Assembly (NCBI RefSeq): GCF_988242995.1
Contig: NZ_OZ547043.1
DNA length: 64,000 nucleotides
Strand: one strand, 5' to 3'
Both the position numbers and the translations under genes were made by a program. Of this stretch, positions 49,563-50,226 are shown one piece after another (positions within the stretch are counted from its first letter, which is position 1; every line of letters starts with the position of its first letter). The notes under the pieces were generated by a model that worked only from the letters and a program-made list of their open reading frames with translations, ran no database searches and was not told the origin of the DNA.

Positions 49563-49591
49563 AAGGACTCCTTGATTTATTATGTAACATG

Positions 49592-49635
49592 CATTACAAA
49601 ACTGTTTTAACTTTCTGTCAACAAGTTTTGTAATG
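49592..49635. promoter_or_regulatory. Candidate BdcR operator in the bdcA-bdcR divergent region
   Basis: Inverted repeat CATTACAAAAC ... GTTTTGTAATG spanning the divergent promoter region and abutting the bdcR start codon. Confidence 0.4.
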
Positions 49636-50226
49636 GTCACTAAAAAACAATCTCGCGTTCCAGGTCGTCCCAGACGTTTCGCTCCTGAGCAGGCAGTCTC
49701 TGCGGCAAAAGTGCTTTTTCACCAAAAAGGTTTCGATGCTGTCAGTGTTGCTGAAGTTACTGATTATCTTGGTATTAACCCCCCGAGCCTCTACGCGGCT
49801 TTTGGCAGTAAGGCTGGGTTATTTAGCCGTGTACTCAATGAATATGTCGGTACGGAAGCTATTCCGCTTGCCGATATTCTTCGTGATGATCGTCCGGTAG
49901 GCGAGTGCCTGGTTGAGGTATTAAAAGAAGCGGCGCGCAGATATAGCCAAAACGGCGGCTGCGCTGGCTGTATGGTTCTTGAAGGTATTCATTGTCATGA
50001 TCCACAAGCGCGTGATATTGCCGTTCAATATTATCACGCCGCAGAAACGACCATTTATGACTATATCGCCAGGCGGCATCCACAAAGCGCACAATGTGTG
50101 ACTGATTTTATGAGTACCGTGATGTCAGGGCTTTCTGCGAAGGCACGGGAGGGGCACTCCATCGAACAACTCTGTGCAACAGCTGCGCTGGCGGGGGAAG
50201 CGATAAAAACTATTCTCAAGGAGTGA
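49633..50226 (+). CDS. bdcR: TetR-family transcriptional regulator
   Basis: 197-aa ORF with an N-terminal TetR HTH (AAKVLFHQKGFDAVSVAEVTDYLGINPPSLYAAFGSKAGLF). Confidence 0.9.
   Translation: MVTKKQSRVPGRPRRFAPEQAVSAAKVLFHQKGFDAVSVAEVTDYLGINPPSLYAAFGSKAGLFSRVLNEYVGTEAIPLADILRDDRPVGECLVEVLKEAARRYSQNGGCAGCMVLEGIHCHDPQARDIAVQYYHAAETTIYDYIARRHPQSAQCVTDFMSTVMSGLSAKAREGHSIEQLCATAALAGEAIKTILKE

Follow-up and report, generated by a model that had tools for sequence, protein, structure and literature searches.

Two CifR-type operator sites for BdcR predicted at the bidirectional bdcA-bdcR promoter of Escherichia coli

An inverted repeat lies between the divergent genes bdcA and bdcR of Escherichia coli. 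Its position raises the question of whether it is an operator of the regulator BdcR, how many binding sites it represents and how these relate to the promoters of the two genes. We analyzed the locus in a 64,000-nucleotide stretch of contig NZ_OZ547043.1 (assembly GCF_988242995.1), hereafter the window. Positions 48800-50300 are 100% identical to E. coli strain ST2747, and this region is found in 4,815 of 5,426 complete E. coli genomes. The gene order according to RefSeq is yjgH, bdcA, bdcR and tabA. The gap between bdcA and bdcR measures 70 bp (49563-49632) and has a G+C content of 29%. Residues 23-66 of BdcR match the Pfam family TetR_N (E = 2.5e-13), and BdcA matches adh_short and adh_short_C2 (E = 1e-46 to 1e-50, the latter value for adh_short_C2). 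The divergent partner of bdcR is a single SDR gene, and yjgH, a RidA-family gene, is next to it on the same strand. The features of the locus are listed in Table 1.

BdcR is named in the secondary literature as the repressor of the divergent bdcA. As a rule, a TetR-family regulator represses the divergent gene when the distance between the two is below 200 bp (PMC3511530). The arrangement of bdcR is that of such a regulator, with palindromes near its own gene and the divergent gene 70 bp away. The target is less well described by the first-pass annotation of this DNA, in which BdcA was called a c-di-GMP-binding SDR. This label is outdated: no c-di-GMP binding by BdcA was observed by DSF or ITC, and the protein binds NADPH specifically with a Kd of 25.9 uM (PMC4171110).

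Table 1. Genes, promoter elements, repeat arms and predicted operators at the bdcA-bdcR locus (window positions)
Feature	Position	Strand	Description	Source
bdcA coding sequence	48849-49562	minus	237-aa SDR	ORF list; RefSeq annotation of ST2747 (100% identical)
bdcA start codon	49562-49560	minus	ATG	ORF list
bdcA Shine-Dalgarno	49568-49572	minus	AGGAG, 5 nt ahead of ATG	direct sequence reading
bdcR -35	49572-49577	plus	TTGATT	Shimada 2014 (PMC3946193); Table S2 of PMC12825309
O1 (predicted operator)	49578-49603		TATTA-TGTA-ACATGCAT-TACA-AAACT; exact TGTA-N8-TACA; 23.8 bits	
bdcA transcription start	49585	minus	approximate (about 1 nt either way)	cappable-seq, Table S2 of PMC12825309
Left arm	49592-49603		CATTACAAAACT; O1 right half-site plus 3 nt of the O1 spacer	
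bdcA -10	49593-49598	minus	TGTAAT	Shimada 2014 (PMC3946193); Table S2 of PMC12825309
bdcR -10	49595-49600	plus	TACAAA; overlaps bdcA -10	Shimada 2014 (PMC3946193); PMC12825309
bdcR transcription start	49609	plus	approximate; downstream of left arm	cappable-seq, Table S2 of PMC12825309
bdcA -35	49616-49621	minus	TTGACA; between the arms	Shimada 2014 (PMC3946193); PMC12825309
O2 (predicted operator)	49624-49649		AGTTT-TGTA-ATGGTCAC-TAAA-AAACA; TGTA-N8-TACA with one mismatch; contains bdcR ATG; 22.6 bits	
Right arm	49624-49635		AGTTTTGTAATG; O2 left half-site plus ATG	
bdcR coding sequence	49633-50226	plus	197-aa TetR-family regulator	ORF list; RefSeq (TetR/AcrR family regulator)

An extended inverted repeat overlapping the bdcR start had been reported in the first-pass annotation, and both parts of this description hold. 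In this strain the arms are perfectly complementary over 12 nt and are separated by a spacer of 20 nt. The arms quoted earlier were one nucleotide shorter (CATTACAAAAC at 49592-49602 and GTTTTGTAATG at 49625-49635). K-12-like strains carry a G at 49624, which gives arms of 11 nt. The right arm includes the bdcR ATG (49633-49635). A chance origin of the repeat was rejected. First-order Markov sequence is expected to contain 0.17 perfect 12-nt inverted repeats per 64 kb when spacers of up to 40 nt are allowed, and shuffling of the 78-bp region produced such a repeat in 7 of 20,000 cases. The region also holds a short direct repeat (AACTGTCTTACCT and AACTGTTTTAACT, two copies with 85% identity), which we treated as a chance occurrence.

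The promoters of both genes have been mapped. Genomic SELEX with RNA polymerase holoenzyme identified TTGACA-17-TGTAAT for bdcA and TTGATT-17-TACAAA for bdcR (PMC3946193). A 2026 study in NAR described bdcA/bdcR as one of five natural bidirectional promoters; such promoters share a -10 region and have divergent cappable-seq starts 10-23 bp apart, and RNA polymerase alone makes both the bdcA and the bdcR RNA in vitro (PMC12825309). The 50-bp bdcA/bdcR construct of that work is identical to window positions 49572-49621. Both start-site coordinates were read from markup boundaries in a text rendering of Table S2 (PMC12825309) and are approximate for that reason. They lie 23 bp apart, which fits the published range of 10-23 bp (PMC12825309). 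With the starts and the in vitro transcription taken from the literature, the locus has the properties of a bidirectional promoter as defined by Warman et al. 2021 and in PMC12825309. Our own consensus promoter scan of 49350-49850 gave no match. The scan demands A at -10 position 2 and T at position 6, and it is uninformative here because the published TGTAAT has G at position 2 and TTGATT-17-TACAAA fails other criteria, including T at position 6.

These positions change how the arms relate to transcription. The arms had been described as flanking the divergent promoters. Instead, the left arm constitutes the shared -10 region, the bdcR -35 lies outside the repeat and the bdcA -35 lies between the arms. 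The right arm falls outside the 50-bp fragment that is sufficient for transcription. The symmetry might then be a by-product of the bidirectional promoter, with no repressor site involved. The coincidence of the left arm with the overlapping -10 hexamers is in keeping with this, as is the ability of fragment 49572-49621 to drive both transcripts in vitro with RNA polymerase alone (PMC12825309). However, the right arm and the palindrome around it, O2 in Table 1, are not promoter elements and lie beyond the sufficient fragment. Further evidence on this point comes from relatives of the locus and is given below.

The start sites also bear on whether the repeat acts as RNA, either as a bdcR-leader hairpin that buries the start codon and controls translation, or as a structure in the bdcA transcript. 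If both arms were co-transcribed, a stable hairpin with a paired AUG would form (-14.4 kcal/mol, z = -4.05). By the published, approximate start sites, however, the arms are never together in one transcript: the bdcR start near 49609 is downstream of the left arm, and bdcA transcription, starting near 49585, heads away from both arms. The actual bdcR leader is unstructured (-2.1 kcal/mol, z = +1.9), and the hairpin is not conserved in alpha-proteobacterial orthologues (z from -0.2 to +1.4; Jiella, -1.8). An Rfam search of the region gave no match. A cis-regulatory hairpin should have both arms in one transcript and pairing conserved in relatives; neither was found, and the candidate was rejected. 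We regard a role of the repeat as RNA as extremely improbable.

The arms are best read as the inner half-sites of two separate 26-bp palindromes, O1 and O2, whose outer partner half-sites lie beyond the arms. Both palindromes follow the consensus wTTTTGTAGTG-nn-CACTACAAAAw, which has the core TGTA-N8-TACA. The half-site consensus, derived from 48 half-sites, is t-T-T-t-T-G-T-A-G-T-g. Both inner half-sites are close to it, and this suffices to explain the 12-nt identity between the arms. In E. coli the right half of O2 is TAAA rather than TACA, and O2 may be the weaker site because of this substitution. With a matrix trained without E. coli, O1 (23.8 bits) and O2 (22.6 bits) ranked first and second in the 64-kb window, and the third match scored 11.5 bits.

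The two palindromes do not overlap in E. coli and are 46 bp apart, centre to centre. Relative to the bdcR promoter, O1 extends from -31 to -6; relative to the bdcA promoter, it extends from -18 to +8. According to the published promoter data, both -10 hexamers are inside it. On the bdcR side, O2 covers +16 to +41 of the transcript region; with respect to the bdcA promoter, it reaches from -39 to -64 and abuts the -35.

In principle, each arm could also be one half of the same extended BdcR operator, with one oligomer bound across 32 bp from centre to centre. Such an operator would account for arms that are perfectly complementary, statistically unexpected and placed in the divergent promoter region of the regulator's own gene. 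Yet each arm has a nearer partner half-site 12 bp away, with which it forms O1 or O2. The comparisons that follow distinguish further between one long site and two local ones.

Loci encoding relatives of BdcR (about 60% protein identity) were collected by protein search and contig look-ups. The twelve loci are those of Citrobacter, Raoultella, Klebsiella aerogenes, Sphingopyxis, Microvirga, Roseomonas, Tianweitania, Novosphingobium, Jiella, a soil metagenome, an Acetobacteraceae MAG and Azospirillum. Five further bdcA/TetR loci, found by plasmid tblastn, were held out: Pantoea dispersa, a Salmonella plasmid, a K. pneumoniae plasmid, Roseinatronobacter and Variovorax. In a single-protein scan of genome contigs, the matches listed were two near-identical Escherichia-type loci. 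In eleven of the twelve loci, the TetR gene is divergent from an SDR gene across a gap of about 62-78 bp; the SDR has 237 aa (235 aa in Tianweitania). The O1 palindrome is found mid-gap in all twelve, the Tianweitania copy being degenerate and placed by eye. O2 lies over or just before the regulator start codon in 11 of 12, the exception being the K. aerogenes locus, which lacks the SDR.

Of all 18 bdcR-type loci, which come from alpha-, beta- and gamma-proteobacteria, 17 have both local TGTA-N8-TACA palindromes. Counted separately, homologues of O1 occur in 17 other bdcR-type loci and in cifR-morB, and homologues of O2 in 16 other loci and in cifR. The background in flanking DNA and the 64-kb window is 0.02-0.03 matches per 110 nt, and shuffles give a probability of about 1e-3 per locus for two matches with at most one mismatch in about 110 nt. 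When the 26-column matrix was run on the five held-out loci of about 3 kb each, the top two matches were the expected O1 and O2 in every case (19.6-35.7 bits), and the third scored at most 2.8 bits. In most loci, the right half of O2 belongs to the coding sequence, and part of its conservation could mirror that of the protein. Coding constraint does not explain the palindrome in Pantoea, where all of O2 is located ahead of the annotated ATG.

The orthologues keep the local palindromes and not the long repeat, and the distance between O1 and O2 varies, from 46 to 50 bp in the twelve-locus set and from 44 to 50 bp over all loci; both observations argue against one long operator. Since this spacing is not phased with the helix, cooperativity between the sites is not implied. 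The full 26-bp palindromes, including the GTG/CAC spacer and the A/T flanks, track the regulator through three proteobacterial classes, which speaks against promoter symmetry as their origin. Promoter elements near the palindromes are also retained in part. A TTGAnn hexamer occupies the place of the bdcR -35 in most alpha-proteobacterial orthologue loci, and Citrobacter, Raoultella and Klebsiella have CTCATG there. For the bdcA -35, GTCAAG or GTCAAC beside O2 is kept in most orthologue loci and in cifR-morB.

In one diverged Escherichia lineage, the bdcR and bdcA coding sequences are only 89% and 94% identical to those in the window, respectively, whereas position 49558 and the following 124 nt, a stretch that comprises the entire gap and 50 nt at the beginning of bdcR, contain zero substitutions. 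In the other strains examined, the sole polymorphism of the gap is A/G at 49624.

O1 also resembles the site of a global regulator such as CRP, since it can be written as TGTAA-N6-TTACA. The CRP consensus is TGTGA-N6-TCACA. By direct reading, 8 of 10 core positions of O1 agree with it. The two that differ are the G of TGTGA and the C of TCACA, and O1 does not have the CRP core for this reason. Measured from its centre, O1 is 5.5 bp upstream of the transcription start of bdcA and 18.5 bp upstream of that of bdcR, positions that are unusual for an activator. Moreover, the motif accompanies bdcR homologues in alpha- and beta-proteobacteria, and O2 is a second copy of it. A CRP-type site at O1 is accordingly among the least probable of the readings considered, with hardly any chance of being right.

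The palindromes could be compared with experimentally defined operators through CifR of Pseudomonas aeruginosa (PDB 6NSN, 6NSR and 6NSM; PMC10827105), the closest solved relative of BdcR. In searches that compare sequence only, BdcR residues 10-182 align with CifR (6nsn) at E = 2e-18, and residues 11-191 align with 2i10 at E = 3e-18. CifR has two operators in the cifR-morB gap, each occupied by one dimer; a site requires a minimum of 23 bp, and the cifR-proximal operator is bound tenfold tighter than the morB-proximal one (PMC10827105). In the crystal structures, Arg6 lies in the A/T-rich outer minor grooves at T4-T6/A23' and Pro44 and Pro45 lie in the major groove; binding is lost when C15-A16-C17-T18 is mutated (PMC10827105).

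Contigs with P. aeruginosa cifR were retrieved from metagenomes with a degenerate DNA pattern for the CifR recognition helix, and the operator sequence was reconstructed from one such contig and the base numbering in the crystal-structure preprint (PMC10827105). When the BdcR-type matrix was applied to this contig, the top two matches in 12.8 kb were both located in the 125-bp cifR-morB gap. They are 50 bp apart and score 32.6 bits (cifR-proximal) and 25.7 bits (morB-proximal), and the next match scores -0.5. The order of the scores is that of the reported affinities, with the cifR-proximal site the tighter. The reverse complement of the cifR-proximal 26-mer, TTATTTGTATCGATCACTATAAATTT, has T4-T5-T6, C15-A16-C17-T18 and A23 as in the numbering of the crystallised dsDNA26L. 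The family consensus is likewise T-rich at positions 3-6 and has cACT at 15-18; E. coli O2 has CACT, and O1 has the variants ATTA/TGTAAC.

The contact residues are conserved as well. Arg12, Pro50, Pro51, Tyr54 and Lys60 of BdcR correspond to Arg6, Pro44, Pro45, Tyr48 and Lys54 of CifR, and all are invariant in an alignment of 18 sequences. The matrix match to the cifR-morB sites, the shared flanks and the invariant contact residues together identify O1 and O2 as homologues of experimentally defined operators. The match to CifR operators is difficult to reconcile with promoter symmetry as the whole explanation, and we consider that reading very unlikely. The binding of one CifR dimer per 23-26-bp site (PMC10827105) is equally at odds with an oligomer spanning the long repeat, and a single extended BdcR operator is judged just as improbable.

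Taken together, the data make it very likely that the bdcA-bdcR region contains two separate 26-bp BdcR operators, O1 and O2, each most likely bound by one dimer, through which both genes are repressed. The first-pass annotation had proposed that BdcR represses bdcA and its own gene through the repeat. The predicted function stands: repression of both bdcA and bdcR is most likely, and it fits the secondary literature, the 200-bp rule for TetR regulators and the comparative evidence. The notion of one extended operator is not supported, as the arms are best read as parts of two palindromes.

We take the role of BdcR as a negative regulator of bdcA, the promoters and the start sites from the literature, and we infer its occupancy of O1 and O2, the stoichiometry and a steric mechanism as follows. 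One BdcR dimer would bind to each site. By analogy with CifR, the recognition helix with Pro50-Pro51 would enter the major groove near GTAGTG/CACTAC. The N-terminal GRPR arm would place its Arg12 in the narrow, A/T-rich outer minor grooves. As O1 covers the shared -10 region and the bdcA start, a dimer bound there should block RNA polymerase in both directions. O2 is 16-41 nt downstream of the bdcR start and would probably act as a roadblock to bdcR transcription. Its location directly upstream of the bdcA -35 would probably reinforce the repression of bdcA.

The relation to CifR also suggests what BdcR may sense. Cys107 of CifR is required for epoxide-triggered release of DNA (PMC10827105). 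Gly112-Cys113 of BdcR corresponds to Gly106-Cys107 of CifR and is invariant in the 18 sequences. The operator type, the layout, the contact residues and this Gly-Cys pair led us to the idea that BdcR could sense epoxides or other electrophiles in a CifR-like way that depends on its cysteine, that BdcA could be the induced NADPH-dependent reductase and that the biofilm dispersal phenotypes could be secondary. The cysteine occurs in 52% of the 938 TetR-family sequences aligned by the authors of the CifR study (PMC10827105). Because it is so common in the subfamily, we hold the idea to be possible, if rather doubtful.

BdcR repression of bdcA and the bidirectional promoter have already been published, and the predicted operators appear to be undescribed: the literature that we searched contains no description of O1 and O2 or of their homology to CifR sites. 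The inverted repeat is recast here as a base-resolved model in which O1 covers the shared -10 region and O2 the start of bdcR. A ChIP-seq compendium that includes YjgJ, as BdcR is also called, provided no usable model or motif for it, and the palindromes supply a candidate. If the model is true, the locus is a naturally occurring case of a bidirectional promoter under the control of a repressor. The link to CifR offers a concrete lead, namely thiol-reactive or epoxide ligands and Cys113, to the signal of the BdcA/BdcR pair and the physiology of BdcA. The question of this signal dates from the failure to reproduce direct c-di-GMP binding by BdcA.

Several known systems share parts of this arrangement. 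In vitro, the TetR-family protein AcrR represses the RNAs made in both directions from the acrA/acrR bidirectional promoter (PMC12825309). Like BdcR in the proposed model, AcrR is a TetR-family autorepressor in E. coli that acts at a bidirectional promoter with a shared -10 region. However, two sites of the CifR type are not indicated at acrA/acrR in the schematic of PMC12825309. The operator sequence and subfamily of AcrR are unrelated to those of BdcR, and its target is an efflux pump.

TetR controls a divergent gene pair through two palindromic operators, tetO1 and tetO2, which lie in a short gap and overlap both promoters. Each is a 15-bp palindrome that is read by base-specific contacts in the major groove. 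The layout of O1 and O2 is alike, with two palindromes that overlap both promoters in a short divergent gap. In contrast to tetO, BdcR/CifR-type sites are longer (at least 23 bp) and place an N-terminal arginine in the minor groove. The divergent gap of the tet system is 81 bp (PMC3511530).

QacR-type operators bind two dimers on one 28-bp inverted repeat (PMC10827105). The long inverted repeat in the bdcA-bdcR region could similarly suggest more than one dimer. Unlike in QacR, the E. coli palindromes are 46 bp apart from centre to centre and do not overlap, and the homologous CifR site takes a single dimer.

The remaining parallel is CifR. In both systems, the regulator is divergent from an oxidoreductase gene and the gap contains two pseudo-palindromes of about 26 bp. 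The bdcA-bdcR and cifR-morB regions share the TGTA-N8-TAnA core, which has the same register to TTGA(-35)-O1 and GTCAA-O2. The two proteins are only about 31% identical overall. CifR targets an epoxide hydrolase operon, morB-PA2933-cif; in place of such an operon, the gene opposite bdcR is a single SDR gene. In P. aeruginosa, the cifR-proximal site is found upstream of the start codon; O2 of E. coli overlaps that of bdcR. We see the bdcA-bdcR region as a probable two-operator TetR switch of the CifR type. It is not a new mechanism, and it leaves the general view of TetR-type regulation unchanged.

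On a Pantoea dispersa plasmid, the predicted BdcR operator O2 (1167-1192), which spans the bdcR ATG in E. coli, lies wholly ahead of the annotated start of the TetR gene, whose product is 5-6 residues shorter at its N-terminus. The comparison shows that, from one lineage to another, the palindrome has kept its place and the start codon has shifted relative to it. The Klebsiella aerogenes bdcR orthologue is found without a divergent SDR gene, and a same-strand aldo-keto reductase gene is located upstream of it. At this locus (contig ~1400-1535) the other predicted operator, O1, is intact and O2 has decayed to TGTC-GTGAGCAC-GACC. 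This one locus suggests that O2 is kept only where the divergent SDR promoter is present.

The 24-nt E. coli bdcR leader (CAACAAGTTTTGTA-ATG; window 49609-49635) contains no recognizable Shine-Dalgarno sequence. At the equivalent position, orthologues from Citrobacter, Raoultella, a Salmonella plasmid and Klebsiella carry AAGGAG or AAGGAT, which in these four loci overlaps the SDR-promoter -35. BdcR may be weakly translated in E. coli. A small perfect palindrome near the bdcR start site, overlapping O1 at its outer flank, is absent from every orthologue inspected and may be a chance occurrence in an A/T-rich stretch.

Outside Escherichia, the closest BdcR relatives share only ~55-65% identity and are scattered among alpha-, beta- and gamma-proteobacteria and large plasmids. 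The bdcA-bdcR locus (window 48849-50226) is missing from 611 of the 5,426 complete E. coli genomes. Its patchy occurrence suggests that the cassette has spread horizontally. The locus is also found, with 98% identity to E. coli, on a 5-kb contig labeled 'MAG: Lachnospiraceae bacterium' (SFGN01000138.1), almost certainly an E. coli contig mis-binned into a Lachnospiraceae metagenome-assembled genome.

Several additional features are found in the window. A long open reading frame with a G+C content of 32%, compared to 51% for the window, looks like foreign DNA. The third-best match to the operator matrix, which was trained on non-E. coli O1/O2-type sites, is located within it (51107-51132, 11.5 bits) and is probably an artefact of A/T-richness. 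Besides the one at bdcA-bdcR, the window contains four short-spaced inverted repeats with perfect 12-nt arms; our guess is that these are terminators or REP-like elements.

Additional features of the window
Feature	Position	Remark
Perfect palindrome AAAAC-T-GTTTT	49598-49608	between bdcR -10 and bdcR start site
ORF, 555 aa	50946-52613	annotated hypothetical protein only
Perfect 12-nt inverted repeat, short spacer	758-784	
Perfect 12-nt inverted repeat, short spacer	46446-46479	downstream of pyrB
Perfect 12-nt inverted repeat, short spacer	56201-56224	
Perfect 12-nt inverted repeat, short spacer	63869-63896	

Sequence alignment places Gly112-Cys113 of BdcR (bdcR, window 49633-50226) at the position of Gly106-Cys107 in CifR, its closest solved relative. 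All 18 aligned sequences, which include BdcR-type proteins, CifR and the TetR-type structure 2I10, carry this Gly-Cys pair. In CifR, epoxide-triggered DNA release requires Cys107 (PMC10827105). The invariant match to CifR hints at a thiol-based sensing role for BdcR, tempered by the CifR authors' finding that 52% of related TetR-family proteins have the equivalent cysteine (PMC10827105).
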